From an uncultured Thermococci archaeon (GTDB lineage: Archaea > Methanobacteriota_B > Thermococci > Methanofastidiosales > B48-G16): a stretch of DNA of 64,000 bases. Numbering within the stretch: position 1 is the first letter of the stretch; each line of letters begins with the position of its first letter. A program made the position numbers and the translations under genes. Shown here in pieces: positions 1,278 through 56,229 of this stretch. The notes beneath the pieces are model-generated. The model did no database searches, had not been told where the DNA came from, and saw only the letters and a program-made list of their open reading frames with translations. The DNA lies in NCBI GenBank assembly GCA_964595645.1, contig CAZQQT010000006.1, positions 32,001-96,000 on the forward strand, in the 5' to 3' direction.

Positions 1278-1293
1278 CGCCGTCAGCCGGATT
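1278..1293 (-). repeat. att core: displaced 3' end of tRNA-Asn
   Basis: CGCCGTCAGCCGGATT, identical to 56156-56171. Confidence 0.9.
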
Positions 1294-1303
1294 GTGTACT
1301 CCG

Positions 1304-1318
1304 AATTTAACGCCGACC
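1304..1318 (+). repeat. Putative integrase arm/binding site, left end
   Basis: AATTTAACGCCGACC; 14/15 inverted match to 56131-56145. Confidence 0.7.
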
Positions 1319-1361
1319 AGACAACGCTTCTATGAAACTACTACTCATTCACGGAGATCCT

Positions 1362-1377
1362 TATTTAAATTTTTCGG
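1362..1377 (-). promoter_or_regulatory. Outward-facing BRE/TATA promoter pointing at tRNA-Ile2
   Basis: Minus strand CCGAAAAA-TTTAAATA; resembles CGAAAAATTTTTATA upstream of tRNA-Asn. Confidence 0.6.
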
Positions 1378-1628
1378 GAGGTTCGTGTGAGTTTCTTCTA
1401 AAATCCTATACTGTTCTCAGCAATATAGTATATGAGTTTACTACAGATCGACATAGGTTCATAATTTGCAGCCCTCTAAATCCAATGAGTTACTGAAGAG
1501 GTTGTCTTAGGTAACGTCTGTTTTGGTAAGTTATACGATACAAAATTTGTTAAGCATAACCTTTTAAACTTGGAGACTATAGGGTGTAGTAGAACAAAAT
1601 ACATAGGTAACAAAAAAAAATCGAGAAT

Positions 1629-2363
1629 ATGTATCTTGAAAATAATAAATCTGATCTGGAAAAAAAGCTTTATATGTGTAAAGTTTGTGTAGAACACAGT
1701 GGGTGCTGGGGGCCAGAGTTGACTAAGAAATATAATCCATTATCCATGACATTTTTCTGTGTAGAGAATCCAGAAGAAGACATTCTTAACTCTATTGTTA
1801 AAATAGAATCTACGAATAAATTCAATATTGAACACCTCTTAGAGAACAAAACTAGAAATGTATTGGATATAACACCTATATCCCCTTTTAATAGTGCTAA
1901 ACCATCTAAAAAAGAGTATAATAGTCTACTCCTCTATGTAAAAAGCAGAGATCCAGAGATAACCTCTCTAATAGTGGAACATGATTTGATTCCTGTTCCC
2001 CCCGTGAGAGTATATTATGGGGTAGAGCAGTGGACTTTACTCTCAGATGAAAAAGAGAAGTTTGACGAGTTTTACAGAAAGTTAAGGAGAGTAGGCAATG
2101 CAAAAATAAAGAGTTTTAAACCTTTCTCTTCGGAATTTAATCTTGATTCAAGTTTTGATGTCGCATTACCTTCTCCACTCAGCGATAGACAAAGAGAAGT
2201 GCTATCTGTTTTTCATAAAGAAGGATACTATGACTGGCCGAGAAAAACGACAATAAAAGAAGTGAGCGAAAAGTTCGACCAATGCCGTTCAACTGTACAG
2301 GAACATCTGAGAAAGGCAGAGTCGAGGATAATGTCTCTATTTATAGAAAAACACTTAAAATAG
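1629..2363 (+). CDS. HTH-10 (Bat-like) transcriptional regulator
   Basis: C-terminal LSDRQREVL...GYYDWPRKTTIKEVS...STVQEHLRKAE. Confidence 0.85.
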   Translation: MYLENNKSDLEKKLYMCKVCVEHSGCWGPELTKKYNPLSMTFFCVENPEEDILNSIVKIESTNKFNIEHLLENKTRNVLDITPISPFNSAKPSKKEYNSLLLYVKSRDPEITSLIVEHDLIPVPPVRVYYGVEQWTLLSDEKEKFDEFYRKLRRVGNAKIKSFKPFSSEFNLDSSFDVALPSPLSDRQREVLSVFHKEGYYDWPRKTTIKEVSEKFDQCRSTVQEHLRKAESRIMSLFIEKHLK

Positions 2364-2470
2364 TATTAATTTTAAAAATTTGTGGCAATTAACATTCTTA
2401 TATAGTCTTTTTTCTTTAAAAAATTTGAAAAGAGATAATGTAGTCAGTATTTGCTCTTCAAATGGTATGC

Positions 2471-2481
2471 GCATATGCCGG
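2471..2481 (+). promoter_or_regulatory. GCATATGC operator site 1
   Basis: GCATATGCCGG-AAAAAG upstream of the M24 peptidase operon. Confidence 0.7.
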
Positions 2482-2528
2482 AAAAAGAAATATTAGATAT
2501 AAGAAAGCTATTTTTTTGAGATGATCTT

Positions 2529-3680
2529 ATGAGTAGGGGGATTAAAAAAAGAGAAATAAAAAACAGGATCAGTAAAGTTAGAAAAATAATGGAAAAAGAA
2601 GGTATGAATGCGCTTATTGTAATCGGCAGATCATTTTACGACAGAGTAGGAAATTTGGCATATCTATCAAACCATATCCCCGCATTTCCAGCCTCTACAT
2701 TCAGTGGCACCGTGAAAGGCCTCGGACATGGGGTGTTGCTTCTTCCTTTGGATGATGAACCTGTGTTACTGGTAGATGGTCCTGACTACAGAGAAGACTT
2801 GGTAGCGATAGATGACGTAAGAATAGGACTTGATATGCCATCGGCACTTAAAGAGATCCTCGAAGAGAAAGAGCTGACAGAAGCTACTATTGGCATCGTG
2901 GGATCGGACATCATGCCGCTCACATTTTATTGGGATATTTCTTCCAAAATGCCTAAAATACAATTTGAAAATGCGGATGACATCGTAAATTCTTTAAGAG
3001 CTGTGAAAAGCAAAGAAGAAATTAAATTATTAAAAAAAGCAGCAGAAATAGCAGATTTAGGGCTAAAAGCTGCTTTAAATGAAATAAAAGAAGGAAAAAA
3101 GGAGTCAGAGATTTGTGCAACGGGAATAAAAGCTAGTATCGAAGCTGGAGCAGATTTTGTTCGTTATTTAAGAGTACATTCTGGAAAATGGTCCACAATG
3201 ACATCCAGATGGCCTCAAGCTACCAAAAAAAAGATAAAAACAGGGGAAATTATCAATTTGGATTTAATTGGTGCCTATAGAGGATACCAATTTGACGTGA
3301 ACAGAAGTACAATTTTGGGAAAACCAAGTAAAAAACAATATGATCTTCTGGAGGCAGGGCTAAAAGCTACCCGTTTTGCTGTAAAAATGGCAAAACCGGG
3401 GATAAAAGTGAGTGAAATAGTAGAAAAAACATTAGAATTTGCTGATGAAATGGGATATAAAGAGTATATGTCTGGATTTATGGGACACGGAATAGGGTTA
3501 GAGACAGTTGAAGATCCCTACATCTTGGAGGGTGTGAGTGGCGAATTGAGTGAGAACATGGTGGTGAATATTGAGCCTGGAATCACGGTTCCAGAATTTG
3601 CAGGAGTACGAATAGAGCAGGAAACGATAGTGAAGCAAAATCCTGAGGTTATTGTAGGAATTGATGATAAATTATGGTAA
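2529..3680 (+). CDS. M24 family (Xaa-Pro peptidase-like) metallohydrolase
   Basis: Creatinase-like N domain; LRAVKSKEEI, D..D, GHGIGLE, EPG and GVRIE ligands. Confidence 0.85.
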   Translation: MSRGIKKREIKNRISKVRKIMEKEGMNALIVIGRSFYDRVGNLAYLSNHIPAFPASTFSGTVKGLGHGVLLLPLDDEPVLLVDGPDYREDLVAIDDVRIGLDMPSALKEILEEKELTEATIGIVGSDIMPLTFYWDISSKMPKIQFENADDIVNSLRAVKSKEEIKLLKKAAEIADLGLKAALNEIKEGKKESEICATGIKASIEAGADFVRYLRVHSGKWSTMTSRWPQATKKKIKTGEIINLDLIGAYRGYQFDVNRSTILGKPSKKQYDLLEAGLKATRFAVKMAKPGIKVSEIVEKTLEFADEMGYKEYMSGFMGHGIGLETVEDPYILEGVSGELSENMVVNIEPGITVPEFAGVRIEQETIVKQNPEVIVGIDDKLW

Positions 3681-5399: not shown

Positions 5400-5403
5400 G
5401 CGT

Positions 5404-5727
5404 ATGAAAGAAAATACTGTACTCCTAAGAATTTACAGGTCCAATACAAACGGATTCGAAAAGTACGAGGTCCCTGCTAAAGGTTCTATTACGTTACAGC
5501 GTGCCATAAAATATGTATATGAGAATTTGGATAGGACACTCGCTTTTAGGAATTATTCCTGTTATAAAGGAGTGTGTAGCAACTGTATGGTAAACCTCAA
5601 TGGGAAAAATGTCAGATCATGTAGTGTTTTGTTACAACCTGGGGAGGAAGCTGTGGTAGAACCTGCGAAGGGATTCCCCGTGATCAGAGACCTCGTTGTA
5701 GATTTCAATAGACCTCGTGAGGAATGA
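5404..5727 (+). CDS. Short SdhB/FrdB-like [2Fe-2S] protein (N-terminal domain only)
   Basis: SCYKGVCSNC...RSC...FPVIRDLVVD; no 4Fe-4S/3Fe-4S domain. Confidence 0.8.
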   Translation: MKENTVLLRIYRSNTNGFEKYEVPAKGSITLQRAIKYVYENLDRTLAFRNYSCYKGVCSNCMVNLNGKNVRSCSVLLQPGEEAVVEPAKGFPVIRDLVVDFNRPREE

Positions 5728-7361: not shown

Positions 7362-7386
7362 AACTTTTCTTTTCTGCCAAAGTCGT

Positions 7387-7419
7387 CCGAGGGGTTACCT
7401 CCTTCCCCTCGGGCTTTTT
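7387..7419. terminator. Hairpin plus T-tract between convergent operons
   Basis: CCGAGGGG-10nt-CCCCTCGG followed by GCTTTTT. Confidence 0.6.
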
Positions 7420-7466
7420 AAAATATTTATCAAAAATCTTTTAATTAGAATACATCAACCTTAAAG

Positions 7467-8417
7467 TTATATGTTCAGCACTCCATTTTTCATTATCTCT
7501 TCACCATCGATAAAAACAGATGGCCTTTTAATAATGCAATCAAGATGAATATCTACCTCTATACTCCCTCCAAAACTAGAATTTTTTCCAAGGGCGATAT
7601 GGATGGTGCCTAAAACTTTTTCATCTTCAAGAGGATTTCCTGAAATTATTGCCGCATCATTGGTACCGATGCCAAATTCACCTACCATTTTTGCGCCTTC
7701 CCCATGAGCACTAATACACTTGTTTAATTGTTCCGCTTCACTCTCTCCTTCAATATGAAAAACAGATCCCTCCTCTATCTCAACAGTTATTTCATCCTTT
7801 ACTTTGCCAATACTAGTAATAGAACCATCTACAACAGCCTTTCCATTGATAGAATCTTCTAAAGGAGCTATGAAAGCTTCTCCAGCTGGTAAGTTTCCTA
7901 TAGATCCTTTCTTAGTCAAAATACCAAAATCTGCAATAGATTTTCTTCCTTTTATAGAAAAAGATAAATTTGTACCTTTAGATGAACTAATTTTAATATG
8001 ATTACTTTCATTAAGGATTTGAGCGATTTTTTGGCTCCTATTCCTTACCTTGCTGTAATCAGCATTCATCGTTCTAATTAATATATCTTCATTAATGCCC
8101 GGCATCGTTGCCACTCTTGTACCACTCGTATAGGCCTTCTTTACAGCTTCTGAATGTGTTAAAGAATGTGTCGTTGGACAGACTGCAACATCAGTCTTCA
8201 AGAGCGCAGAGGTTACTAGCGGAGGAGGTTCTCCATCAGTCATTTGAAACGTTGATATCTGAAGAAGAGTAGTATCAGTACTTATTGGAAGAGCAGCTGC
8301 AAACAGAGATTGACCGATAGTCGTTGTTTTTTCATCGCAAACAACAAGAAGATCTTCTTCGGATTGAAATCCCATACATTGTGACAAAACTTTAGATGCT
8401 GCATCCTTTAATTTCAC
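7467..8417 (-). CDS. M29-like (thermophilic leucyl) aminopeptidase
   Basis: NLPAGEAFIAP, GEFGIGTN, EDEKVLGTIHIALG, HLD. Confidence 0.85.
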   Translation of the reverse strand: MKLKDAASKVLSQCMGFQSEEDLLVVCDEKTTTIGQSLFAAALPISTDTTLLQISTFQMTDGEPPPLVTSALLKTDVAVCPTTHSLTHSEAVKKAYTSGTRVATMPGINEDILIRTMNADYSKVRNRSQKIAQILNESNHIKISSSKGTNLSFSIKGRKSIADFGILTKKGSIGNLPAGEAFIAPLEDSINGKAVVDGSITSIGKVKDEITVEIEEGSVFHIEGESEAEQLNKCISAHGEGAKMVGEFGIGTNDAAIISGNPLEDEKVLGTIHIALGKNSSFGGSIEVDIHLDCIIKRPSVFIDGEEIMKNGVLNI

Positions 8418-9493
8418 TTAATCACCTCCAATTGCTTAATTTTATTGTAATCTACCTCTATTCCGGGACCATTAAATTCTAAAATTGGTGATTTTTTTAA
8501 TTTCATTAAATTTTTCTTATAGAAAAAGGGACTATCAAGGTCAATATAATCGAAAATTGGAAAACTAGAAGCTATTTGTGCTGAAAATGAAATGCCTATA
8601 GAAGATTCTCCCATACATCCCATCATAAGCTCCAAGTTTGAGAGTTCTGCAATTGAAATGATATCGAGCGTCTCGAAAACACCGGATTTCATTAACTTTA
8701 TGGTGATTCCATCTACCGCATCTCTCTCACAAAGCCTCATTGCATCATTGGGGGTAAAAACAGACTCATCGGCAAAAACTGGTGCTCCAATATTGTCTCG
8801 TACAAATTTCATCCCCTCTATATCCTCTCTCAAAACTGGCTGTTCAAAAATCTCAATTTCAATATCCAGATTTTTTAGAGCTTCTACAAACTGAACTGCT
8901 TCTTTTGGCGAAAATCCTTGGTTTGCATCGATTCTTATAGAAGACTCACCAACTGCATCTCTCACAGAACTCACTCTTTCGAGATCTGTTTCAAAATCTT
9001 TCCCTACTTTGATCTTAAATATCCTAAATCCGTCTGCAGCTGCATTTTTTGCAATTTGAGCAGCCTTCTCGGAAGGAACAATAGGTATTGTTAAATCGGT
9101 TTCTATCTCTCTCTTAGTAGATCCGAGGTACTCATATATAGAAACTCCTAAAAATTTGCAATAACCGTCGAGGAGTGCCATTTCAATTGCCGCTCGGGCA
9201 CTTCGTTGATAATATATAACTTTGGAGATCTTTCTAGAAAACCCCCTAATATTTTGGATTTCTTTACCGATAATCTGATCTCTAACAGTTTCAATAGCTT
9301 CAATGACGGTGTTTTGACTTTCGCTTGTAACAAAAGAGGATGGAGCTGCCTCACCAATTCCAATCACTCCACTCTCTAAAAAAATGGCAATGAGAACATT
9401 TTTAGCATTTTTTTGGACACCTAAAGATGTTTCAAAAGGATATTTGAGGGGAAGATTTAGTCTATGGACTTTCAAATCCCTAATTTTACTCAT
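8414..9493 (-). CDS. Dipeptide epimerase (L-Ala-D/L-Glu epimerase family, enolase superfamily)
   Basis: KIKVG, DANQG, EQP, ADES, IKLMKSG, DLD. Confidence 0.88.
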   Translation of the reverse strand: MSKIRDLKVHRLNLPLKYPFETSLGVQKNAKNVLIAIFLESGVIGIGEAAPSSFVTSESQNTVIEAIETVRDQIIGKEIQNIRGFSRKISKVIYYQRSARAAIEMALLDGYCKFLGVSIYEYLGSTKREIETDLTIPIVPSEKAAQIAKNAAADGFRIFKIKVGKDFETDLERVSSVRDAVGESSIRIDANQGFSPKEAVQFVEALKNLDIEIEIFEQPVLREDIEGMKFVRDNIGAPVFADESVFTPNDAMRLCERDAVDGITIKLMKSGVFETLDIISIAELSNLELMMGCMGESSIGISFSAQIASSFPIFDYIDLDSPFFYKKNLMKLKKSPILEFNGPGIEVDYNKIKQLEVIK

Positions 9494-10389
9494 TTGAAAG
9501 CTCCTCTCGTCAACCCTGAAATTATATATCTTTGGAAGAGCAACGCAATGATTAGTGGTGGAATAGACCCTACTACACCTGCTGTTATCATGAGATCGTG
9601 AGGATTCATTTGAAGAGTGGAGGAAAACATGGAAATGACAACAGGAAGCGTATGAGAACCTATATCGCTAGTAAGTATTAACGCGAAGAAAAACTCATTC
9701 CAGCAGGTTAAAAAAACGAAAATAGCAACGGCAGCAAATCCTGGCGCAGCAATTGGCAACAAAATCCTGAAAATCACGCCAACTGTTCCACACCCATCAA
9801 TTTTAGCTGATTCTTCCATTTCGTAAGGTACAGTCTGAAAGTAGGAATAGAGCATCCATATAGCGTAGGGCAACATAAACGCCGTATAAACGAAAATTAA
9901 TCCTATATGGGTATTTATGAGTGCTAAATTCCTCAATATCATGTAAAGAGGGATTATAACAATCATGGCTGGAATCATGTTAAAAAAAAGTGTCATGAGC
10001 ATTAACTGATTTTTAGCCCTCATTTTAAAACGGGAGTACGCATAGGCAGGGAAAGATGCAAGCAAGAGTGTTAAAAGAGTTGATCCCATGGCCACAATAA
10101 AACTATTAAGCGATGCCCGTGGCACCCAGTACGCATAATCTGGCACAGCACCTTCCAAAGCTGAACCCTTTTGGTAACGTTGTTGGTGAAGAAGGATTGT
10201 TCTATAATTTATAAACGGATCTTCAGGATGGGGTTCAATCCGCGGGGTTTCTGAATGTAGTTCATAGGACGTTTGAAAACTTTGAATAACCATCCACGCA
10301 TATGGCAATAAAAGAAATCCGAAAATAATTAACGCTACTACAATAATAGGCGATTTTTTTAGGTACTTTAGTTTATTTATCACTTTCAT
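9490..10389 (-). CDS. CUT1 ABC transporter permease (MalG-like)
   Basis: EESAKIDG EAA loop, WNEFFFA, ISGLTRGAFK. Confidence 0.9.
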   Translation of the reverse strand: MKVINKLKYLKKSPIIVVALIIFGFLLLPYAWMVIQSFQTSYELHSETPRIEPHPEDPFINYRTILLHQQRYQKGSALEGAVPDYAYWVPRASLNSFIVAMGSTLLTLLLASFPAYAYSRFKMRAKNQLMLMTLFFNMIPAMIVIIPLYMILRNLALINTHIGLIFVYTAFMLPYAIWMLYSYFQTVPYEMEESAKIDGCGTVGVIFRILLPIAAPGFAAVAIFVFLTCWNEFFFALILTSDIGSHTLPVVISMFSSTLQMNPHDLMITAGVVGSIPPLIIALLFQRYIISGLTRGAFK

Positions 10390-10397
10390 GATATCAC

Positions 10398-11285
10398 TTA
10401 ATATACAACTTTTTTAGCCAAATACTTTATATAAAGGAAGGCGAGAGCGGCTGTGATGATAGCAAGAATATAAGCAGCTGTAGCTCCTTGTCCAAACCGA
10501 TAACTTTGAAATCCCTCGCGGTATACAAGCCATCCTAGCATTGTAGTACTATATCCTGGCCCACCTTGGGTCATGGCATATATTATATCGAATGTCCTGA
10601 GTAACCACATGCTCATAAACAGCACAACAATCATGATAGAGTTTCTTAAGAGGGGTAACGTGATGTGAAAAAATTCTTGAATTGTGCTTGCACCATCAAC
10701 CTTCGCAGCTTCATAAACCTCTTGGGGGATTGACTGTAATCCAGCAAGCAAAAACAGGGCTACAAAGGGCACAAATCTCCATATGGAAGCTACAGCAACT
10801 GTATAGATTGCGTTATCAGGAGAGCTTAACATGATTTTATAAGACTCCCAAATTCCCAACCTAGTCATGACATAGTTAAGCACTCCATAGTTACCATGAA
10901 AAATCCAACTCCACAGTAGCCCTATCACAATCGGGGGAATCGCCCAAGGTAAAAGAGCAAGACCGCGGGCAACCCCTCTTCCAAAAAATGATCTATTGAG
11001 TAGTAAAGCGAGCGCTAATCCAAGTAGCAACGCAAAAAAAAGTGTAAGGACAGTGAACTCCATCGTGTTCAAAAATGTTGTATGAAATTGTGGTTTCTTT
11101 AATATTCTTATATAATTAGATAGTCCCACAAATTTTATCGGTGGATTTGTTAAATCCCATTTATGTAGACTTACATAAAAAGAGTAAATGAGCGGAAAGA
11201 GGATTATGATAAATATGGTTGCATAGGCAGGAATACATGTAAAATAAAAAGGAAAAGAAAAATTTTTAAGTTTTTTAAGGTCCAT
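10398..11285 (-). CDS. CUT1 ABC transporter permease (MalF-like)
   Basis: LAGLQSIPQEVYEAAKVDGA, TQGGPG. Confidence 0.9.
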   Translation of the reverse strand: MDLKKLKNFSFPFYFTCIPAYATIFIIILFPLIYSFYVSLHKWDLTNPPIKFVGLSNYIRILKKPQFHTTFLNTMEFTVLTLFFALLLGLALALLLNRSFFGRGVARGLALLPWAIPPIVIGLLWSWIFHGNYGVLNYVMTRLGIWESYKIMLSSPDNAIYTVAVASIWRFVPFVALFLLAGLQSIPQEVYEAAKVDGASTIQEFFHITLPLLRNSIMIVVLFMSMWLLRTFDIIYAMTQGGPGYSTTMLGWLVYREGFQSYRFGQGATAAYILAIITAALAFLYIKYLAKKVVY

Positions 11286-11296
11286 TTAGCCATCAC

Positions 11297-12727: not shown

Positions 12728-12774
12728 CTTTATTCACCACCTATATCTGGATAATATTTTTATTTAAGAGTTTT

Positions 12775-41755: not shown

Positions 41756-42325
41756 ATGAAAAAACCGATCCTCAAGGAAGACGTGCGGATCCTCCGACCC
41801 TCAGAGTACGATCAGCTCCGGGACGCGATCCCCAAAATGCACCACCAGATCTTTCTCGATACCCTGCTCTACAGTGGGATGCGGTACATCGAAGTGCAGC
41901 GGTTCCAGGACCATCCAGAGTGGTACGAGAAAGAGACCAGGACGATCCACATCCCCAAGGAAGGAGGGAAAAAGAAAAAGCGGACCATGAAGGATCGGTA
42001 CGTGCACCTCAACCAATCGGGATCGAATACCGTCTCCCTTTTCTTTAAACTGGACCAGGATCTCCCAGCACGGGCCACGTGGTACCAGGATCTCCAACGG
42101 TGGGGCGAGTATACCCGGATGGATACGAATGGGCTCTGTGCGAAAATGACCAGGAAAACGTGGGAATCGTGGCTCCTCACAGCCTACCCCAAGGCCACCA
42201 TCCAGGTCTGCATGTCCATGGGACATACCAAGCTTACCGCGATGGAACACTACCTGAATTTACCGTTTACTGACAGCGAACGTAAGGAGATCATCGAGAG
42301 AGTTGCAGGATGGGGAGGACTGTAA
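41756..42325 (+). CDS. Minimal tyrosine recombinase (catalytic domain only)
   Basis: YSGMRYIE, KMTRKTW, MGHT, HY (R..K..R..H..Y). Confidence 0.8.
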   Translation: MKKPILKEDVRILRPSEYDQLRDAIPKMHHQIFLDTLLYSGMRYIEVQRFQDHPEWYEKETRTIHIPKEGGKKKKRTMKDRYVHLNQSGSNTVSLFFKLDQDLPARATWYQDLQRWGEYTRMDTNGLCAKMTRKTWESWLLTAYPKATIQVCMSMGHTKLTAMEHYLNLPFTDSERKEIIERVAGWGGL

Positions 42326-48038: not shown

Positions 48039-48367
48039 GGATATAAGATCACCAATAACACTCGTTCTTTTGCTGCCAGGGCGCATGATTGCATAATTCG
48101 TTCTGACGATCCATTCCTCTATAGCCTTGTTCATAACTTCTGTTCTCGGTGGTTAATGCAACACAGCAGTTAGGATCGGAATCTTTATATATTCGAGTAC
48201 TAAAGAGTAGTATTCGGAGGTAGATCTTCATCTAACTACGGAAGTATCGATCCTATTGAAAGGACTCTGGAGGCTGGATCCCTGCGAGATATTAAGGCAG
48301 GAGACGAAAAGTTCATGTTTCTCAGATAGAACTTTCTTTGTGGTTCGATAATTGAAGGTAATTGTAT

Positions 48368-49735
48368 ATGCAGGTACTGATTCTAGCTGCTGGCGAGGGA
48401 TTTAGATTAAGTAAAATAGCTGGTGAATCTCCCAAATCTCTCCTCTGCGTAGCAGGCGTCCCGATAATAGAACGTATATTGAGGTCAATTAGGGAGTTGG
48501 AGATAGACAAAATTCACATCGTTCTGGGATATAATGGAGATAAAATAATTGAGAGGATTGGGAATAGTTATGAGGGGGTACACATCCAGTATATTGAAAA
48601 TCCAGAATGGAAGAAGGGAAATCTATACTCACTATTCGTTGCAAAAGAATTCCTGAAGGAAAATTTTTTACTTCTGATGTCCGATCACTTGTTTGATCCT
48701 CGCATAGTAAGACACATTACAGAACAAAAGATAGGAAGTGATGCGGTGATCCTGGCTGTTGATAAGTGCAAGGCTAAGCATGAGGATGGCAAGGTCCTGG
48801 TGGGGAACGGAAAGATCCAAGACATTGGCAAGGATTTAAAGGACTACAATTGTGTGGATACTGGGATATTTCTATGCTCTCCAAAAATATTCCACTACGC
48901 GGAAAAGGCACTGAGAAATGGTAGTAGTGAGCTTGCTGAGGGAATTAAATACGCTGCAGAGGAGGGGCAAGCAAGAACGTTTGGCATAAACTTAATACCC
49001 TTACACCTTCCGAAAATGCGTAAGGATGTAAAGCCATACTGGATCGATATAGACACACCAAAAAACCTCACGAAGGCCAAAGAGATTATAGTTGAAAGCT
49101 CAGCAAAGGAAGCCTCTGACCTATTGGCTCATTACTTTCACCGACCTATAGAAAACAGCATTGTAGGTCATCTCTCGGATACAAGGATCACGCCAAACCA
49201 AGTGACTATTCTAGTGAATATAGTCGCTTACACTGTAACTGCCTTGTTCTTCTTTGGACACTTACTAATGGCCTCGATACTAACATTTGTCGTGGGGATT
49301 ATGGATGGTCTTGACGGCAAGCTTGCGAGAGTCAAGGGGAAATCCACCAAACTCGGTACCTTGGAACACCCCTTCGACCTGCTCTATGAGTTCTTTTGGA
49401 TCGCCAGTCTGGGACTGTTCCTATCCAACACTCTGCAGAGTACAACACCAGCCACCTTGGCAATACTCTCCATAATCGTCATAGCATTCTATCGTCAGGT
49501 TTATGATCGATTTGGAAGGACAATGGGGAAAAGCCTGGATGTTTATGGAGAGTTCGAGCGAAAATTCCGGAGGATCGCTGGGAGGAGGAATCTCTACAAC
49601 ATCCATATCTTAGCGTGGATTCTTGTTGGTGCACCTCTCTACTCGTTGGTAACGATCCTACTCCACTCCGTAGTCACCTCATTTGTGTACACCATTCGCG
49701 CCGCGATTCACATGCACAAAGCCGAGAAGAAATAA
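48368..49735 (+). CDS. Bifunctional NTP-transferase/CDP-alcohol phosphotransferase (IPCT/DIPPS-like)
   Basis: ILAAGEGFRL..PK, MSDH, DTGIF, WIDIDT; TPNQVT, DGLDGKLAR...G...D. Confidence 0.85.
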   Translation: MQVLILAAGEGFRLSKIAGESPKSLLCVAGVPIIERILRSIRELEIDKIHIVLGYNGDKIIERIGNSYEGVHIQYIENPEWKKGNLYSLFVAKEFLKENFLLLMSDHLFDPRIVRHITEQKIGSDAVILAVDKCKAKHEDGKVLVGNGKIQDIGKDLKDYNCVDTGIFLCSPKIFHYAEKALRNGSSELAEGIKYAAEEGQARTFGINLIPLHLPKMRKDVKPYWIDIDTPKNLTKAKEIIVESSAKEASDLLAHYFHRPIENSIVGHLSDTRITPNQVTILVNIVAYTVTALFFFGHLLMASILTFVVGIMDGLDGKLARVKGKSTKLGTLEHPFDLLYEFFWIASLGLFLSNTLQSTTPATLAILSIIVIAFYRQVYDRFGRTMGKSLDVYGEFERKFRRIAGRRNLYNIHILAWILVGAPLYSLVTILLHSVVTSFVYTIRAAIHMHKAEKK

Positions 49736-50337
49736 ATTCTCTCCAATGTGACATACGTAAAACTCAATACAGGAAGAGGACCTCATTCTTAATCCCAAGG
49801 AGAAGAAGGAAGAGTTACCCTTAATAAACCCTCACAATCCTTGGTTGTGTCCATAACAGCCCTACCTGTGTAGGTTTCTGTTTTCAGTGATTAATGCGAC
49901 ACATTGCTTTCGCTGCAGTTCGGTTTCAACGGCGGGACTCTTACGCTTTAGATTTTAATACTGCGTGCACGAATAGTCGCATGTCTTGTACCCTGAGAAG
50001 CCGTGAGGCGTTGAACATAGGGCGATCACTTACGGGTGAGAGAATACAATCCTGGAGTGTAGAGCCAAAGGATAAGGTGGTGATCGAAAGCTTTATTAAG
50101 AATTATATCTATAAAAACATACAGATAGGGGATATTTTCTGAAACAACAAGAGGAGATATCTGTAAGAAGTGAACGGAGGGTAAGTATGCGGGGGACGGG
50201 AACTGCACACATCATTATTTACACAGAGCGTAAGTGAATAGTATCATAAAATCCTGATAATTATCACAATTCGAACAAAGAAAAAAGAATACGTGTTATA
50301 CCACTCACGAGACACGATCGATCAGAAATCACAGTAA

Positions 50338-50598
50338 TTACCGCGATTTTCCACCGGAGAGACGATCCTCGTCAAGGATCCGATCCTTGAGTTCGGGCGT
50401 GAAGAGGGGGGTGGACGTCACGAACTTCGGAGAGAGCTCCGATACCTTAGGGCTCCGCCCCATGCGGTAGACGTAGAGTGGACATTGATGGAGATGACAA
50501 CGGCGGACCTCCCCCGGCGATCCGTTCGAACAGTCCAGACAGTACCGCCGGATCGCCTTCAACGGGGTCGTCCGGATCCACGATGCTTCGATTCTCAT
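50338..50598 (-). CDS. Small Cys-rich (Zn-finger) mobile-element protein
   Basis: KAIRRYCLDC...C...CPLYVYRMG; overlaps the upstream stop (ATGA). Confidence 0.75.
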   Translation of the reverse strand: MRIEASWIRTTPLKAIRRYCLDCSNGSPGEVRRCHLHQCPLYVYRMGRSPKVSELSPKFVTSTPLFTPELKDRILDEDRLSGGKSR

Positions 50599-52553
50599 GC
50601 GGTCACCCCAGCAGTATCCATCGGCTCCATTTTTATCGTCCTGTACCCTCCTCTGGCCTCCCAGATGTCTCCTCGTTCGAGTGAGAAGGGAATACCAACG
50701 CGGAGCACGAACTCCTTGGTCAGGCCTCGAGCCACAGCCTCACTGAGAATCGCGTCAAGAGGAACTCCCTCGTGCTGCGACTGCAGGTCCCCCACAACCC
50801 CGAGTAGTACCTCAAATTTCTCATGCTGGGTGAATGGAGCAGATCGCCGATCCTCCTTGGACAGGTCGGACACGGTCGGACACGACCCCTCTTGTCCAAC
50901 GGATACTCCTCCGTTTCCCCGTTGCTTCTCATTTTGGGCGTCAATGATACCGTGGGATCGGTTGGACACCGTGCTGGAGTACGAGTAGATCTCCTCGACG
51001 AGGTCATCGAGATTCTTCCCCTCGGGTATACAGCCATTCTTCCCGTGATGTGTCCAAGCTCTCGAGACATCCAACAAGAACGATTTTAGGCTCTGTTTGT
51101 CGAGAGTGATTGGATATTCCCCATTGTCCAGGGCTGTCCAAGCTGTCCAATCCTTGCCCGTTTTCCAGTAGTGCCATGGACTGGTCTTCCATTCTCCCTC
51201 TTTCTCTCGATCCACGTACCCCAGATCGTAGAGGGTGTTCAGATACCGTCCCACCGTTTTTCTCGAGACGTTCTCCTTCCTTCTGAACATGCTCTCATAC
51301 ACCTCTGTACATCCCTTGGCTCGCTCTCGTTCCATGGGCAGGAGATCCAGGATTTCCTGTTCCTTCCGGTTCAGCTTACTGGACGTCTGTGCCCCGACCA
51401 CCTTCCAGAGGTCCATGGCGATCCGGTAGTCCTCGAGGGTGGCGAACAGGACACCGTGGAGAGCGTACCGCTCACGTTGGTGGGCGATGGCAGAAGCCTT
51501 GATGAGGGTGAGGAGGAACTTCGGAATCCTCCTATCGTGCGTCGCTCGTGTGAAAATCTTCTTTAACGCTCGCTTGTATGGGATGATCACGATATACTCC
51601 CTCTCCATGAGTAGCTGGGTGACCGCCCTCGCCACCGTGTAGCTCTCCGGCAACGCTCTCTCGAGACCGCATGCGGCCCGCTCGACTGTCAGTGCGATGG
51701 CCTTTTCGTCCGTCTCTTCTTCCTCGGAGGGATTGATCACCGTAAACCTGTTCATGAACTCCTCATGTTTTGGCTGGTGTACCGCCGCACACCACACCAC
51801 GATGTAGTTTGGGATGGAGAGGTCTCTCGTCTCCCGTTGCCCATTTTTTCCTTCTCCAGTAGCCCAGTGTCGTGATTTCGAGTGGTTATTCGATGTGATG
51901 GCCATAATAACATTGATCGCCTCCAGAGAATTATTGAACTCGTCGATGAACAAGATGCTGTGTTCGAGGAGCCTCTTCCGTTCTTCTGAGAGGTAGTAAA
52001 GTGCCTTCCCCGTGATACTCGATAGAATTATCCTTTTATGAACAGGGAAGAGCTCTATCACCGTCCCCATTAAGTGGGATTTCCCCTTTCCAGAGGCCCC
52101 GGTGGCGAACACATGCTCCTGGTGGCCCCAGAGGCAGGCGGTGAGTCCGGAGAGGTAGAGGTACTTCGATCGATCCCGATCCCCCACATGGACCAGTTCG
52201 ACCTGATCGGCCATCCACTCCATCACATTCTCGTGGGCGAGGATGTGCTCTGCTTTCTGTATGGTAGAGTTCTCAAAGTACTCGGGGATTCCAAGATCCT
52301 TACAGACCTCGTAGAACGATCGTGTGTCACCTCTGTCCTCCTCGATGGAGGAAAATCGTGAGCTCAAGAAGGCTTCTAGATTGGCGCCTTCGATGGTGTA
52401 CTTCTTTTTGACCTCCTCCAGCTGTCTGAAGACAGCGGTGGGGAGTACCGCCCTGTTCTCTTTCTCGTCCGTGATAAACGTCCCGATTAGGGTTTCCCAG
52501 TACTCCCACGCTCGGTTGAGCTCCTCCTGATTGCCATCCCACTTTCCGTTCAT
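50595..52553 (-). CDS. P-loop NTPase with wHTH, putative replication protein/helicase
   Basis: GASGKGKS, ILFIDE, FMNRF; C-terminal wHTH; GC-rich. Confidence 0.75.
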   Translation of the reverse strand: MNGKWDGNQEELNRAWEYWETLIGTFITDEKENRAVLPTAVFRQLEEVKKKYTIEGANLEAFLSSRFSSIEEDRGDTRSFYEVCKDLGIPEYFENSTIQKAEHILAHENVMEWMADQVELVHVGDRDRSKYLYLSGLTACLWGHQEHVFATGASGKGKSHLMGTVIELFPVHKRIILSSITGKALYYLSEERKRLLEHSILFIDEFNNSLEAINVIMAITSNNHSKSRHWATGEGKNGQRETRDLSIPNYIVVWCAAVHQPKHEEFMNRFTVINPSEEEETDEKAIALTVERAACGLERALPESYTVARAVTQLLMEREYIVIIPYKRALKKIFTRATHDRRIPKFLLTLIKASAIAHQRERYALHGVLFATLEDYRIAMDLWKVVGAQTSSKLNRKEQEILDLLPMERERAKGCTEVYESMFRRKENVSRKTVGRYLNTLYDLGYVDREKEGEWKTSPWHYWKTGKDWTAWTALDNGEYPITLDKQSLKSFLLDVSRAWTHHGKNGCIPEGKNLDDLVEEIYSYSSTVSNRSHGIIDAQNEKQRGNGGVSVGQEGSCPTVSDLSKEDRRSAPFTQHEKFEVLLGVVGDLQSQHEGVPLDAILSEAVARGLTKEFVLRVGIPFSLERGDIWEARGGYRTIKMEPMDTAGVTA

Positions 52554-52798
52554 TGTTTCTTCCTCCGTGTAAGTGTGAAGAGCCGGATGTTCACATTACT
52601 GTAGAGCTCTTCAGCCTTTCCGAGGCCCTTTAATGCGTCCAAATGCTTCAGTGCGGTGGTTCTTGTCGTCCTCGCATCTTTAGCAATCTCGCCAATGGAC
52701 TTAGGTCGCTCTGTGGAGAGGACCCCGAGTATCCTTCTCCGTATCGCAAGATCCGGACTCGGTCCATTCTTTCGATCTCCGTGGGGGTTGTTATCCAT
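52550..52798 (-). CDS. wHTH DNA-binding protein
   Basis: RRILGVL...SIGEIAKD...RTTALKHLDAL; translationally coupled to the NTPase; start uncertain. Confidence 0.75.
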   Translation of the reverse strand: MDNNPHGDRKNGPSPDLAIRRRILGVLSTERPKSIGEIAKDARTTRTTALKHLDALKGLGKAEELYSNVNIRLFTLTRRKKQ

Positions 52799-53027
52799 AA
52801 TCGACACTGAACCCCCTCCCTTCTTAAACACGATACGCACCTCCCCATATATCCACTGAAAGGTGAAGTGATCGAGAAACGTTAAATGAAGTGTCCAAGA
52901 TGACTTCTTCATTCCACAAAATACCTCCAAAAAACGTACTGATCGTGTTTCTAAAGGCCACATATATCGATTTCCATGGAATTGGCCGAATTGACGGTAT
53001 TAAAAGGGGGAATGGGCAGCGTGAGAA

Positions 53028-53222
53028 AGGATACTGTGGAATTATTGCCCCAATTGCCGCTCACAACTTCTTCAACATTGCTGTCATTCTCATGGGGTAG
53101 AAAATGACTGCAAAGACACTTATTAATTAACAAGTGTCTTCAGAGCACGTGATGGAGAGTAGAAGTGCGTATCCCCTTTAAGAACCCCCCGTTCGCGAAG
53201 AAGGTGGAGTTGATAAAAAATG
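53028..53222. repeat. ~195-bp direct repeat, copy 1
   Basis: Matches 54518-54713; conserved ends, diverged central hairpin. Confidence 0.9.
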
Positions 53223-53643
53223 AGTCGACGGGGACACGGAGAACCACATCGTTACTAGTAGGAGAGAGTAATGTATACTGGAAAAGGTCTCGCCGAAGTT
53301 CGCAGTCAATTCCACAGTGCAATTGTGCTCAGGAGGTAGGAGATGTTTTGAAAGACAGTACTGGTGGTCAGTACTGTTTTTGGAGCACAGTATGGAGAGG
53401 GATCGTACCTATCAGCTGTATACCCCTTCGTTCTTGAAAGGGTAAAAACTGCCATGAAAAAGAATGATCGGATTAAGAGTTAGAAGAACTTGAATAGTGA
53501 AATCAAAGGATGGTAGATATTTAATCTAGCTAATGCCATCTAATTTTATTCAATAATCTAGAGGCAGGATACTACTGTTGTCCATAGCTGGAACCTGTAA
53601 GCGACACCCTTAAATACGTCGAAAGTAGATACATGGTAAGGAG

Positions 53644-53865
53644 GTGAAAATCGTGCATGAAAAAGAAATAGAAATGAAAATGCAAGAGCTCCCTGAAGAT
53701 TTGAGAAGAGAGGTTTTAGACTATGTGGAGTTTCTGTTGAGAAAGTATGACGATAGAAAGATCGCAGCAAAAAAGTTTACGTTTAACTGGGAAGGTGGTC
53801 TCGCAGAGATAGGGGATACATTTACCTCTGTTGAGCTACAACATAAAACGTTGGAGTGGCGGTAA
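53644..53865 (+). CDS. DUF2281-type antitoxin
   Basis: LPEDLRREVLDYVEFL...FNWEGGL...SVELQH. Confidence 0.8.
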   Translation: MKIVHEKEIEMKMQELPEDLRREVLDYVEFLLRKYDDRKIAAKKFTFNWEGGLAEIGDTFTSVELQHKTLEWR

Positions 53866-54242
53866 TGTTTTTAGTTGATACGAATGTATTTTTGGAGATA
53901 CTCTTGACGCGAGATAAAAAAGAAGATTGTAAGCAATTTTTGAATGACAATATTGGAAATCTCACCATGACAGATTTTTCTTTGCACTCTATTGGTGTAA
54001 TTCTATTTAGATATAGGAAAGAGGATATTTTTCAGAACTTTGTTGAAGATATCATACCGAGTATCAAACTTCTCTCATTGCCGAGGGAGCTGTATAGAAA
54101 AATTGCACACGTCAGAACGAGCTTGAATTTAGATTTTGATGACGCTTATCAGTATAGCATGGCTAAATATTATAGGCTGGAACTGGTTACGATGGATAAG
54201 GATTTTGAGAGGATAGAAGATGTTGAAGTGTTGTTCTTGTAG
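53865..54242 (+). CDS. vapC: PIN-domain toxin
   Basis: LVDTNVFLE, LDFDDA, TMDKDF. Confidence 0.88.
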   Translation: MFLVDTNVFLEILLTRDKKEDCKQFLNDNIGNLTMTDFSLHSIGVILFRYRKEDIFQNFVEDIIPSIKLLSLPRELYRKIAHVRTSLNLDFDDAYQYSMAKYYRLELVTMDKDFERIEDVEVLFL

Positions 54243-54517
54243 ATTTTTTTTATTTCGCCAAAGGAATTTCATCTATATCAAGAAAGACAAATGTCACTGA
54301 GAGGCACAAGCGGTGAGATCACGTTCTTAAAAAAAGATGGCAGTGAGTTGATTGTCAAAAAAGACAGGAAAAAGAAACATTTTCTCTTCTGAGCTTGTTC
54401 AAAGGAAGAACTTCAGAGGCTGCTGAATGGTGATCTGGGTAGGGTTATTCAACTCGAGTCGTGCCGCTACCGATCTCCGAATTTAGAGTATTGAAACGAA
54501 ATGGGAGAGTTTTGGGG

Positions 54518-54713
54518 AGGATACTGTGGAATTATTGCCCCAATTGCCGCTCACAACTTCTTCAACATTGCAGTCATTCTCATGAGTTAGGAGATGCCCG
54601 GAAGTACACTTATGACTATCATAAGTGTACACGGAGCACGTGATGGAGAGTAGAAGTGCGTATCCCCTTTAAGAACCCCCTGTTCGCGAAGGAGGTGGAG
54701 TTGATACAAAATG
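54518..54713. repeat. ~195-bp direct repeat, copy 2
   Basis: Matches 53028-53222. Confidence 0.9.
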
Positions 54714-54860
54714 GGTATAGACGACTATAAAAAGAAACTGGTAGACCACGCGAAAACCTCACCGTGGAGGACTTCGCCACGAAGATCCGGGAAGGTGAGC
54801 CGTCACTGCCTATGGCAACAAAGGAGAAAAAGGTACCTCCCACGTCTTTGAATGGCCGGA

Positions 54861-56093
54861 TCACGTAGGTTCTTCCTCTTTTTTTCGTTTCTCCACCAGC
54901 TCTCGGAACTCCCGATGGAGTGAGGGATACTTCTGGAGGATCGTCATGAGATCCATGAGTTTATCCAGGTTTTTCAGCTCCTCCGGGTCCGCCCTGGCGA
55001 TCAGGGGGATGGCCCTCATGAGCTTCTCGGCACCCCGATCCATCCTCGCCCGCTCCTCCTCGCTGAGCACCGTTCCACACCGGCTACAGTACCGCTCCGT
55101 GGGACCGTTCACGTACCCGCACCGAGGACACTTTGTGATGTCACTTTTTTCCTCTTCCTCCTTTTTCAAGCCGTACATGCCAAGGACCCTGTTGTCGATA
55201 TCGCGACCACTAAGGTGGACGTAGGTGGCGGTCATGTCGCTTCCCTGGACCCACCCCATGTAGGCACACAGCTCGGGCTCAGTGAGATGTTTGAGGAGAT
55301 CCCGAACCCTGGAGTGACGGAAGAGGTGAGGATGGACATCTTTGTCAATCCCCGCTTTCTTCGCGATTTTTCTGATTCGCTGCCGGAAGGAGTGGTAGGT
55401 GAGGGGCCGGTGGTCGTCCACGAGGGTCACCCAGAGGGGAGCGTCCCGCTCATCTCTCCGGGGATGGACATCCAACCACTTCGCGAGAATCGACGTGGAG
55501 GTCACGAGGCGGACGGGACGCTCTCCTGTTTTCCCCATCACTTTGATGACCGCTCCGTAGTCATCGAAGGACACATTTTTGATTTTGAGGTGACCGAGTT
55601 CTCCAATTCGCAGTCCCCCCTCGTAGAGTACCGCGATGATCGCCTTATCTCTGATGTACGGGGCAGCCTCGATCATCTTCGTGATGTCCTCCTTCGTGAG
55701 GAGATCGTCCGGTGACTTCCGCCGCGTCTTCTTCACCGTGGTCTTCACGTCTTTCGTCAGCTCTTCTTTCTCTAAGTAGCGGAACAGCCGTTTCAACACG
55801 ACCTTGTAATCTGCTTTGGTCCATTCAGAGTAGTCCGACCGTTCCAACTCTGCGAGAAAAGAGATCACGTCCTGCTCATCCCACTCGGTGAAGGGTTTCT
55901 CCTCTGTCCGTTCTACCATCATCTTCAAATGTCCCGCATATTTGGAGATCCGTGCCTTCGATAGTCCCTCCGCAGTGAGTTTCTCGAGAAAGTTCTCCAC
56001 GATCTCTACATTCTCTTCGTTGTCGAACGCTTCAATGGCACCCTTGTAGAGCTCAATTCTGCGGTCGTAATTGTAGAGGTTATTTTCTTTCAT
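54861..56093 (-). CDS. Tyrosine integrase with C-terminal Zn ribbon
   Basis: GLRIGE, GKTG, HPHLFRHS, GW...TYVHL; CPRC...CSRC. Confidence 0.92.
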   Translation of the reverse strand: MKENNLYNYDRRIELYKGAIEAFDNEENVEIVENFLEKLTAEGLSKARISKYAGHLKMMVERTEEKPFTEWDEQDVISFLAELERSDYSEWTKADYKVVLKRLFRYLEKEELTKDVKTTVKKTRRKSPDDLLTKEDITKMIEAAPYIRDKAIIAVLYEGGLRIGELGHLKIKNVSFDDYGAVIKVMGKTGERPVRLVTSTSILAKWLDVHPRRDERDAPLWVTLVDDHRPLTYHSFRQRIRKIAKKAGIDKDVHPHLFRHSRVRDLLKHLTEPELCAYMGWVQGSDMTATYVHLSGRDIDNRVLGMYGLKKEEEEKSDITKCPRCGYVNGPTERYCSRCGTVLSEEERARMDRGAEKLMRAIPLIARADPEELKNLDKLMDLMTILQKYPSLHREFRELVEKRKKEEEPT

Positions 56094-56130
56094 ATAGTAT
56101 CTTAGCGACGCTATCCTTTATTAAGTTTAC

Positions 56131-56145
56131 GGTAGGCGTTAAATT
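56131..56145 (-). repeat. Putative integrase arm/binding site, right end
   Basis: Minus strand AATTTAACGCCTACC. Confidence 0.7.
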
Positions 56146-56155
56146 AAGAAAAGAG

Positions 56156-56229
56156 CGCCGTCAGCCGGATTTGAACCGGCGGCCGCCTGGTTAACAGCCA
56201 GGTGCTCTACCGAACTAAGCTATGACGGC
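56156..56229 (-). tRNA. tRNA-Asn(GTT), integration target
   Basis: GCCGTCA...CCTGG-CTGTTAA-CCAGG...GTTCAAATC...TGACGGCG. Confidence 0.95.

Follow-up and report, generated by a model that had tools for sequence, protein, structure and literature searches.

A mosaic 55-kb island inserted at an archaeal tRNA-Asn gene, with inverted arms around its integration core that recur in the integrase family

The DNA analyzed here, a 64,000-nucleotide stretch of an archaeal genome (the window), contains an island of 54,862 bp (1294-56155) bounded by a 16-nt repeat of the tRNA-Asn 3' end. Insertion of this DNA at tRNA-Asn is strongly supported by comparison with the empty sites of relatives. It is very probable that the island, a mosaic, entered by site-specific recombination at the single tRNA-Asn gene by means of its own integrase, with the arrangement of flanking arms described below. 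An island of this sort at a tRNA gene is ordinary; the mirror-image design of the arms recurs in a little-studied family of archaeal integrases.

The integration site has the following parts.
1163-1237 (-): tRNA with a CAT anticodon, called by ARAGORN; a host gene, directly downstream of tRNA-Asn in relatives
1238-1277 (-): original host spacer between tRNA-Asn and the CAT tRNA, a near-match to the G001 spacer
1278-1293 (-): attL core, the displaced original 3'-terminal 16 nt of tRNA-Asn
56156-56171 (-): attR core, the element-supplied 3' end of tRNA-Asn
56156-56229 (-): tRNA-Asn(GTT), intact, with its last 16 nt supplied by the element

ARAGORN called tRNA-Asn(GTT) at 56155-56229 (-). Reading of the acceptor stem placed the discriminator G, the true end of the gene, at 56156, and the 16-mer at 56156-56171 is therefore the exact 3'-terminal 16 nt of tRNA-Asn, a gene with a single copy in the genome. 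A search of the window confirmed the claim of an earlier sequence-only reading that these 16 nt are repeated exactly at 1278-1293. The 16-mer had exactly these two copies, 16/16 identical, with no further copy in the window even at up to 3 mismatches, and two matches were obtained in 0 of 100 shuffles. Identity between the copies ended on either side of the 16 nt, and the base following the discriminator differed between them, as expected if the element supplies the end. The CAT tRNA is probably tRNA-Ile2, because its acceptor and anticodon stems resemble those of tRNA-Ile(GAT). The motif TAACGCC was present at the host/core junction (1275-1281), where the same reading had noted it; this is host sequence, with AACGCC at the same place in the relatives' empty sites, and the density of the 7-mer across this genome is about 4 per 64 kb.

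In four relatives from two genera, one of the same genus (G001) and three of the same family (G002, G003, and G005), tRNA-Asn and the CAT tRNA (Ile2 or Met) were adjacent with nothing between them. These relatives are MAGs at approximately 75% DNA identity. The G001 spacer is 41 nt and matches 1238-1277 of the window, and alignment with the empty sites placed both breakpoints at the 16-nt block. No DNA orthologous to the 55 kb was found in the five nearest relatives (G001-G005). Unlinked tRNA genes and cargo in the core genome had been named beforehand as evidence against an insertion; the relatives instead have adjacent tRNAs and lack the cargo. The locus has the marks of a tRNA-integrated island, namely an intact tRNA with a displaced 3' fragment and an empty site with breakpoints at the repeat. 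Together with attL and attR and a zinc-ribbon tyrosine integrase at the tRNA-proximal end, these findings bear out the proposed 55-kb insertion in the tRNA-Asn 3' end.

The integrase and its promoter lie beside the tRNA.
54861-56093 (-): integrase, 410 aa, intact
56117-56124 (-): putative TATA-like box of the integrase gene, about 27 nt upstream of the ATG, identified by eye; position conserved in homologues

The integrase ATG is 62 bp from the core and tRNA. The protein consists of a SAM-like core-binding domain, a catalytic domain (Pfam PF00589, E 1e-23, plus a SAM-like N domain), a CxxC...CxxC zinc ribbon (C322-C339), and a helical tail. R162, K188, H256, R259, W281, and Y291 were invariant in a 16-sequence alignment, which identifies the protein as a tyrosine recombinase, and the zinc ribbon was invariant among homologues. 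The protein has more than 1900 homologues and aligned with homologues over 97-99% of its length, and the family was found in Methanosarcinales, Theionarchaea-like lineages, and others, with several copies in some genomes. The closest solved structure, that of Pyrococcus abyssi XerA, spans just residues 19-299. On the N-terminal side the SAM-like domain is preceded by only about 30 residues, and the extra C-terminal module (zinc ribbon plus helices) has no solved relative. The predicted model of the integrase was low-confidence (pLDDT 57). A second element in the same genome has an integrase paralogue of 53.5% identity, next to which 13 nt of the tRNA-Glu 3' end are repeated (contig C3), and a separate XerA-like gene is present on the same contig. 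We rejected the possibility that the integrase is a XerA chromosome dimer resolvase: at E<=1e-40 the gene was absent from four of the five nearest relatives (G001, G002, G003, and G005), it is patchy in the phylum (16/133 genomes) and tRNA-adjacent, and the XerA-like gene is separate. An SSV-type suicidal integrase was also rejected, given the intact ORF and a core lying upstream of the ATG.

Two inverted arms flank the core when the island ends are joined.
56131-56145: integrase-side arm, directly upstream of the integrase BRE/TATA, with 10 bp between it and the core
1304-1318: distal arm, inside the element, 10 bp from the attL core

These 15-nt arms are reverse complements at 14/15 positions, and each is exactly 10 bp off the core, so the symmetric attP proposed from the sequence alone held. 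The arm score was reached by 0 of 2000 shuffles of one arm region, and at no more than 1 mismatch the 15-mer was found only at these two places genome-wide. Similar inverted arms, as that reading had anticipated, were found beside homologous integrases. Eight att sites of the family, including that of the window, had inverted arms around the core; of the other seven, two were strong and five weak. The strong sites were the window (14/15), a Methanosarcina element (13/15), and an attP-like site from a metagenome (16/20), and in these three the dyad was within 1 nt of the core centre. At 5/8 sites the arms were individually not significant (p 0.05-0.18), and the Fisher combined p for the family with the window excluded was approximately 1e-5. 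Arm-to-core spacing ranged from 0 to 28 bp, and core repeats from 12 to 20 nt. The order core-spacer-arm-TATA-ATG was kept in homologues, with the integrase-side arm always just upstream of the integrase TATA; the conserved part of this arm is a TTTRAY..CC.ACC-like element abutting the TATA box, and TAACGCC as such, which that reading took for the recognition motif, is a putative one. The motif was conserved among elements with different tRNA targets and is therefore not target-specific. The family also includes contiguous arm-core-arm sites that carry a tRNA fragment and have no tRNA; by their sequence, these sites show that the core is element-borne.

Several known systems share parts of this arrangement. 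Islander-type islands likewise combine a tRNA gene regenerated intact with a displaced 3' piece marking the far border, a tRNA-proximal integrase, and variable cargo (PMC4383910). The island of the window differs in being archaeal, in its 55 kb, a large size for an archaeal integrated element, in its core of only 16 bp, and in its near-perfect inverted arms around the core. Bacteroides NBU1 also integrates at a tRNA 3' end, and its attN1 element site has a common core of approximately 14 bp between inverted repeats; NBU1 is bacterial, and its integrase is unrelated to the window integrase. The SNJ2-type integrase of haloarchaeal pleolipoviruses, found in Halobacteria only according to a review, is by description, like that of the window, a classical unsplit archaeal tyrosine integrase; its core at a tRNA 3' end is short (13-14 bp), and an accessory wHTH protein is the proposed binder of its conserved P/P' flanking arms (PMC5861418). 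However, SNJ2 Int requires Orf2 and Orf3 in its operon, no zinc ribbon is reported, and the description of its arms is of conserved flanks and not, as in the window, of an inverted pair. The best solved relatives, XerA of P. abyssi and Thermoplasma (PDB 4a8e, 5hxy), share the catalytic set of the window integrase and, across residues 19-299, its two-domain fold; XerA, however, resolves chromosomes at dif, a site of 11-6-11 layout, whereas the window integrase is tRNA-adjacent and has a C-terminal extension of approximately 110 aa. Integrases of SSV, pTN3, and pT26-2 (Thermococcales, Sulfolobales) are archaeal, tRNA-targeting, and from the same class of hosts, but their att of 40-50 bp or more lies inside the integrase ORF and the gene is split on integration (PMC7253208, PMC5495485); in the window the gene is intact, and att, with its 16-bp core, does not overlap the ORF.

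Lambda Int resembles the window in having extra sites outside the core on the element side only; its asymmetric arms, read by the N-terminal domain, lie at distances of tens to >100 bp (PMC8371274). In contrast, the arms of the window family are symmetric and 3-15 bp from the core, and the integrase is almost without an N-terminal extension; therefore, a domain or protein other than the lambda type would have to read the arms. The att region of KplE1 IntS overlaps the integrase promoter, as it does the putative promoter in the window; autoregulation is documented there, and such overlap is predicted for many tRNA-associated integrases (PMC2951348).

The island is a mosaic and not a clean element, with a plasmid-like backbone of approximately 6 kb, a defence/remnant zone, a tRNA-Leu att fragment, and a peptide-catabolism cluster. 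GC within it varies between 0.30 and 0.52; the genome mean is 0.43.
1629-27966: cargo cluster of bacterial-type peptide catabolism (Pfam scans)
28000-48300: defence-like/remnant zone, AT-rich and mixed (Pfam scans)
41756-42325 (+): ORF of 189 aa with only a tyrosine-recombinase catalytic domain, a weak match below Pfam/NCBIfam cut-offs
50082-50201 (-): remnant of another element, a tRNA-Leu(GAG) fragment plus about 105 bp of homology
50338-52963 (-): backbone genes common to small elements of the same integrase family
53028-53225 and 54518-54716: direct repeats of about 200 bp, approximately 90% identical, flanking a toxin-antitoxin pair
53644-54242 (+): the DUF2281-PIN toxin-antitoxin pair, between these repeats

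The cargo cluster encodes an HTH_10 regulator, M24, M29, and S66 peptidases, an MR/MLE (dipeptide-epimerase-like) enzyme, a CUT1-type ABC importer, an FrdA-like flavoprotein (nearest named relatives bacterial, at approximately 50% identity) with a 2Fe-2S partner, an acyl-CoA ligase, aminotransferases, and PrpD-like, AstE-like, HMGL-like, and PALP enzymes. An MFS gene in the cluster (18316-19193) looks broken. In the defence zone, two PDC-S02-like PD-(D/E)XK nucleases sit in a 408-bp inverted repeat (30502-30909 / 37676-38083), accompanied by Mrr-like, UDG-like, and HNH-HhH genes and a pentapeptide/ion-channel gene broken into three ORFs (39494-41436); by tblastn, the 189-aa ORF is unrelated to the island integrase family. 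In the remnant, the last 15 nt of tRNA-Leu(GAG) (50187-50201) are followed by the homologous stretch, which matches the tRNA-proximal end of the tRNA-Glu element on contig C3. The remnant marks the edge of the GC-rich backbone and had no inverted arms. The backbone encodes an 86-aa ORF, a 137-aa HTH_20/DUF7342 protein, and a 652-aa protein with a central wHTH that an Atlas lead tentatively places in PF27228, a family of plasmid and virus proteins. No capsid, terminase, or VirB4/VirD4-type transfer genes were detected by Pfam in the island, where many small backbone ORFs are without a family. IMG/VR labels the contexts of some relatives as proviruses.

In the mechanism that we propose, an element-borne copy of the tRNA-Asn 3' end would have recombined with the host's single tRNA-Asn gene. 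The recombinase would be the island's own classical (non-split) tyrosine integrase, with its XerA-like two-domain core, zinc ribbon, and helical tail. Integration would have pushed the original 16-nt tRNA end to 1278-1293, with the element giving a perfect replacement. In the predicted circular form, the core would lie between the two inverted arms, 10 bp off each side, and these may be the outer binding sites of the recombination complex, with either the extra C-terminal module of the integrase or the small HTH protein of the element as candidate binder. The integrase-side arm would also act as an operator of the abutting leaderless integrase promoter. Only the approximately 6 kb beside the tRNA is the usual plasmid-like backbone of the family; the other 49 kb, with the defence genes, the remnants of other elements, and the peptide-catabolism cluster, would have been fused before or after integration.

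We extend this mechanism only tentatively to the whole family. It is doubtful, but could be the case, that inverted outer arms define a large archaeal zinc-ribbon integrase family whose C-terminal module reads them in a symmetric four-site attP. On the same speculative footing, attL and attR would keep one arm each, and this geometry would set directionality and shut the integrase promoter. If true, archaeal integrases would have their first described arm-site system, in which geometry, instead of a lambda-like asymmetric intasome, governs directionality and promoter shut-off.

The island could also be a fossil, a 6-kb integrase element plus other DNA that accreted at a tRNA-Asn hot spot, and it would no longer move as a unit. 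This has a substantial chance of being correct, although we do not favor it. Tandem integrations with internal deletions, or insertions into the first element, would be the route, with the arms coming from two related elements. The sharply differing GC regimes, the usual family element size of only 6.7-14 kb, the tRNA-Leu att remnant exactly at the backbone boundary, and the split pentapeptide/ion-channel and MFS genes are all consistent with accretion, as are attP-like junctions within chromosomal contigs (L081, L110, L129), which suggest that tandem arrays are common. However, no internal copy of the Asn core was found, even at 3 mismatches, and with cores at 16/16, arms at 14/15, and an intact integrase, nothing required for excision is visibly broken. 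The predicted attP junction was not found in public metagenome and viral contigs. The tRNA-Leu remnant and the broken genes point to an old island that may have lost its mobility; present-day excision, as the earlier reading proposed it, would be a prediction.

A rather unlikely alternative is that the arms form a transcriptional operator and not recombination sites. A regulator or Int would bind the arm by the integrase TATA, a second inverted copy would be near only in the excised circle, and integrase expression would track integration state. The integrase-side arm abuts BRE/TATA in every homologue of the approximately 50% identity clade, elements with different tRNA targets share the motif, the HTH_20/DUF7342 gene belongs to the shared backbone, and KplE1 offers the precedent of an autoregulated promoter overlapped by att. 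Yet a pure operator needs no second copy symmetric about the crossover core, and at the three strong sites the dyad falls within 1 nt of the core centre. The arms could also serve both roles. It is far less probable that the 16-nt repeat arose as a target-site duplication of a transposon-like (for example, casposon-like) element, the arms being its subterminal inverted repeats and the integrase a passenger. Inverted repeats near the ends plus a short direct repeat are a classic transposon signature, and casposons too target tRNA 3' ends. This origin is disfavored by the lack of any Cas1, PolB, or transposase among approximately 60 island ORFs scanned with Pfam and by the variable repeat length in the family, unlike a fixed duplication. 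The element-borne core of the arm-core-arm sites and the differing base after the discriminator also argue against it.

The recombination reading yields, for a lineage that has received little study, a cleanly bounded archaeal island whose borders are known to the base pair, with empty sites in relatives and an intact integrase. Its 27 kb of bacterial-like peptide and amino-acid catabolism and its defence genes lie wholly within the integrase-bounded insertion, direct evidence that this group has acquired metabolism by horizontal transfer. If the four-site model is true, the intact 55-kb island would be a natural substrate moving bacterial-type cell-wall-peptide catabolism between archaea. A short core centred between inverted arms, one of them abutting the integrase promoter, recurs in a widespread and biochemically untouched family, and directionality control and autoregulation in archaeal integrases become testable with a 66-bp substrate. 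The insertion also splits the tRNA-Asn/CAT-tRNA unit, a dicistron in relatives; the promoter of the downstream CAT tRNA must therefore be one that the element either left in place or brought with it.

The CAT-anticodon tRNA (probably tRNA-Ile2) lies just outside the left end of the island (1294-56155), and the integrase and tRNA-Asn at its right end:

1163-1237, minus strand, CAT-anticodon tRNA (ARAGORN)
54861-56093, minus strand, integrase, an intact open reading frame with its start 62 bp from the tRNA end
56155-56229, minus strand, tRNA-Asn(GTT) (ARAGORN)
60549-60619, plus strand, tRNA-Cys (ARAGORN)

Reading of the acceptor stem placed the discriminator G of tRNA-Asn at 56156, so that the last 16 nt of the gene are exactly 56156-56171. 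As the sequence-only reading had claimed, these 16 nt recur exactly at 1278-1293; the 16-mer CGCCGTCAGCCGGATT (plus strand) is the same at both sites, has no further copy in the window at 3 or fewer mismatches, and gave two matches in 0 of 100 shuffles. Because tRNA-Asn is a single-copy gene in this genome, regeneration of its end is essential.

We searched 30 relatives for the empty site with the right flank as the query. The CAT tRNA directly adjoins tRNA-Asn in a relative of the same genus (G001) and in three of the same family (G002, G003, and G005). The spacer between them is 41 nt in G001, near-identical to window 1238-1277, and 1 nt in G003 and G005. In alignment A2, the left junction matches the empty site from the CAT tRNA through the spacer and 16-nt block and then diverges, and the right junction rejoins the empty site at the 16-nt block and continues through tRNA-Asn. 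Beside the discriminator, the left junction keeps the host base and the right junction has a different one, as expected if the element supplied the new tRNA end. In the five nearest relatives, DNA matches to the 54,862 bp enclosed by the cores do not exceed paralogue level (65-72%). Alternatively, the two tRNAs could have been unlinked in relatives, with the cargo present as core genome. Because the tRNAs are instead adjacent and no orthologous match to the island was found in the nearest relatives, the reading of the 54,862 bp as an insertion at tRNA-Asn is strongly supported. The island is real, precisely bounded, and of a known kind, and its structure had been read correctly from the sequence.

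In the relatives (L003/L005), tRNA-Asn and the CAT tRNA are on the same strand, 1-41 nt apart, and are probably one transcript. The insertion places 55 kb between them in the window, so expression of the CAT tRNA must now start from a promoter located at the island's left end or within it; a TATA-like sequence, TTTAAATA, at approximately 1363-1378 is directed outward from that end. G001 (L002:418-515) has two copies, 63 nt apart, of a ~35-nt segment containing the CAT tRNA 3' end, a finding that suggests another small insertion event at this tRNA.

In the 410-aa integrase, a SAM-like core-binding domain and a Phage_integrase domain are accompanied by a zinc ribbon. Homologues number more than 1900; the ones with 50-55% identity are in MAGs named Methanomicrobia, Theionarchaea, and Syntropharchaeia, and the ones with 41-46% are in Methanosarcina genomes. 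Residues R162, K188, H256, R259, W281, and Y291 were invariant in an alignment of 16 sequences, as were cysteines C322, C325, C336, and C339. The closest solved structures are archaeal XerA proteins, with coverage of residues 19-299 only; compared with these, the window integrase has a family-specific extension, its last ~110 residues, which comprises the zinc ribbon and helices. An AlphaFold model from the shallow 16-sequence alignment (pLDDT 57) was too poor for use. The integrase is classical rather than of the SSV type, as that type is defined in a review of archaeal tyrosine recombinases (PMC8371274), because the gene is not split by integration. According to the same review, archaeal att cores span 8 to more than 100 bp, so the 16-bp core is inside the known range. 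A second open reading frame, 41756-42325, was considered as a copy of this integrase family and rejected, having no tblastn match to it and only sub-threshold, XerA-like similarity.

The claim of 14/15 inverted arms 10 bp either side of the core was correct as written. The arm on the integrase side, GGTAGGCGTTAAATT (56131-56145), and the distal arm, AATTTAACGCCGACC (1304-1318), match as reverse complements in 14 of their 15 positions, and exactly 10 bp separate each from the core. This score was reached by 0 of 2000 shuffles, and no other place in the genome has the 15-mer with up to 1 mismatch. Joined through one core, the two arm regions (56131-56155 and 1294-1318) would make an attP of 66 bp. 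TAACGCC at the host junction (1275-1281) had also been offered as evidence for a recognition motif. That evidence was rejected because this third copy belongs to the host and is also conserved where relatives have the empty site, and because no resemblance between arm and attB was found in other family elements. Mimicry of attB by the arms is thus unproven and possibly a coincidence, and TAACGCC is at present a hypothetical recognition motif.

Sites of related integrases were then compared:

C3:52076-66119 of the source genome (G000), paralogue element of ~14 kb, GC 0.37, in tRNA-Glu(TTC), with a 13-nt core repeat
14-kb element in tRNA-Thr of a relative
6.7-kb element in tRNA-Thr on a metagenome contig
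10.4-kb element in tRNA-Thr of a Methanosarcina genome, with a 15-nt repeat
L129, L110, and L081, three contiguous arm-core-arm sites on long contigs, with a tRNA 3' fragment and no tRNA

The paralogue on contig C3 is 53.5% identical to the island integrase and adjoins a 13-nt copy of the tRNA-Glu 3' end, 14 kb from the intact tRNA. This is a second family element in the same genome; its integrase lies on the opposite side of the core, at the end farther from the intact tRNA. The three contiguous sites are either unintegrated replicons or tandem-array junctions of related elements. Arms were scored by taking the best ungapped inverted match between the two 45-nt flanks of the core and comparing it with shuffles:

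Window: 14/15, 10 and 10 nt from the core, p ~5e-4
Methanosarcina element: 13/15, 7 and 5 nt from the core, p 0.004
Contiguous site L129: 16/20, 3 and 5 nt from the core, p 0.0015
Five other sites: weaker, at variable distance, p 0.05-0.18

The combined p for inverted arms was ~1e-5 with the window left out, and in the three strong cases the dyad is 1 nt or less from the centre of the identity block. All homologues of the ~50% identity clade have the same upstream order: the core, 9-12 nt, a motif of 15-17 nt, a TATA-like box, and the ATG about 25 nt on. This constant order makes the arm a conserved feature of the family, adjacent to the promoter. The motif resembles TTTRAY..CC.ACC, and the window version contains TAACGCC. 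The expectation that the arm motif would be conserved beside homologous integrases thus held on the integrase side, and the inverted partner across the core is recurrent, with variable strength. Of 20 regions around homologues from relatives, most end at contig breaks and only 2 have a tRNA in range; a pattern search for the far-end core of one homologous element returned integrase-side copies only, and IMG/VR provirus records of relatives are cut at the integrase start, without arm sequence. An attachment site with its short core midway between inverted arms, of which one lies against the integrase promoter, appears to be a trait of the family, which is an uncharacterised group of archaeal integrases.

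The arms could serve in the recombination complex, in control of the integrase promoter, or both. Their symmetry about the core centre and their position just outside the ends of a canonical core-type site argue for the former; there would then be two arms at the element site and none at the chromosomal site, with a single arm at each of attL and attR. The fixed position of the integrase-side arm relative to the TATA box argues for a regulatory role, and in the KplE1 prophage the attL region overlaps an autoregulated integrase promoter (PMC2951348). The two roles are compatible. Candidate readers of the arms would be the C-terminal module of the integrase and the 137-aa HTH_20/DUF7342 protein encoded at 52550-52963 in the backbone; for the SNJ2 system, the proposed binder of conserved P/P' arms is a wHTH accessory protein (PMC5861418).

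With identical cores, near-identical arms, and an intact integrase, the island shows no visible defect in anything that excision requires. Neither the predicted attP junction nor the core joined to an arm through 10 nt was found by exact searches of public metagenome and viral contigs. Continued excision of the whole 55 kb seems to us possible but on balance doubtful, and present-day mobility of the island is a hypothesis.

The island is a mosaic in composition, against a genome mean GC of 0.43:

1.6-28 kb, cargo cluster, GC 0.37-0.42
29-32 kb, GC 0.49
43-47 kb, GC 0.30
49-57 kb, GC 0.50-0.52
53028-53225 and 54518-54716, direct repeats of ~200 bp, ~90% identical, bracketing a DUF2281-PIN toxin-antitoxin pair

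Only 50.3-56.1 kb (integrase, HTH protein, and an 86-aa ORF) is common to the small family elements; this backbone also has a 652-aa wHTH protein with resemblance to a plasmid/virus family (an Atlas lead). The DUF2281-PIN pair sits between the integrase and the HTH gene. The last 15 nt of tRNA-Leu(GAG) (50187-50201) stand exactly on the boundary of the backbone and are followed by ~105 bp with homology to the contig C3 element at its tRNA-proximal end. This junction was rejected as a second symmetric attP, being without inverted arms (p 0.74), and no second Leu core was found in the window. No internal Asn core is left in the island, and the data do not decide between fusion in a plasmid before integration and accretion afterwards. 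Beside the tRNA-Leu remnant, inside the island, is a fused NTP-transferase/CDP-alcohol phosphatidyltransferase (48362-49735), which has the architecture of the inositol-phosphate cytidylyltransferase/DIP-phosphate synthase of thermophiles.

In the middle zone, two PDC-S02-like nucleases form a 408-bp inverted repeat (87%), and Mrr-, UDG-, and HNH-type genes and a weak, catalytic-only recombinase are also present. The repeat (30502-30909 and 37676-38083, ~6.8 kb between) consists of the C-terminal halves of PD-(D/E)XK (NucS_C-like) proteins, a pair that matches the candidate defence family PDC-S02. Three ORFs (39494-41436) are the pieces of a split pentapeptide-repeat/ion-channel gene, of which an intact 641-aa homologue directly follows a family integrase on a metagenome contig (L114:1650-3575).

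A cluster of transport and catabolism genes takes up the left 27 kb, with M24, M29, and S66 peptidases, a dipeptide-epimerase-like enzyme, an ABC importer, an FrdA-like flavoprotein (nearest named relatives bacterial, ~50% identity), a CoA ligase, aminotransferases, and other enzymes. No homologue of the left end of the island (1294-2400) was found in any fetched element. The S66 LD-carboxypeptidase, MR/MLE dipeptide-epimerase-like enzyme, M29 and M24 peptidases, and ABC importer occur together (7467-12727, 25853-26788, and 2529-3680), a set that, judged from its gene content, looks like archaeal scavenging of bacterial cell-wall peptides.
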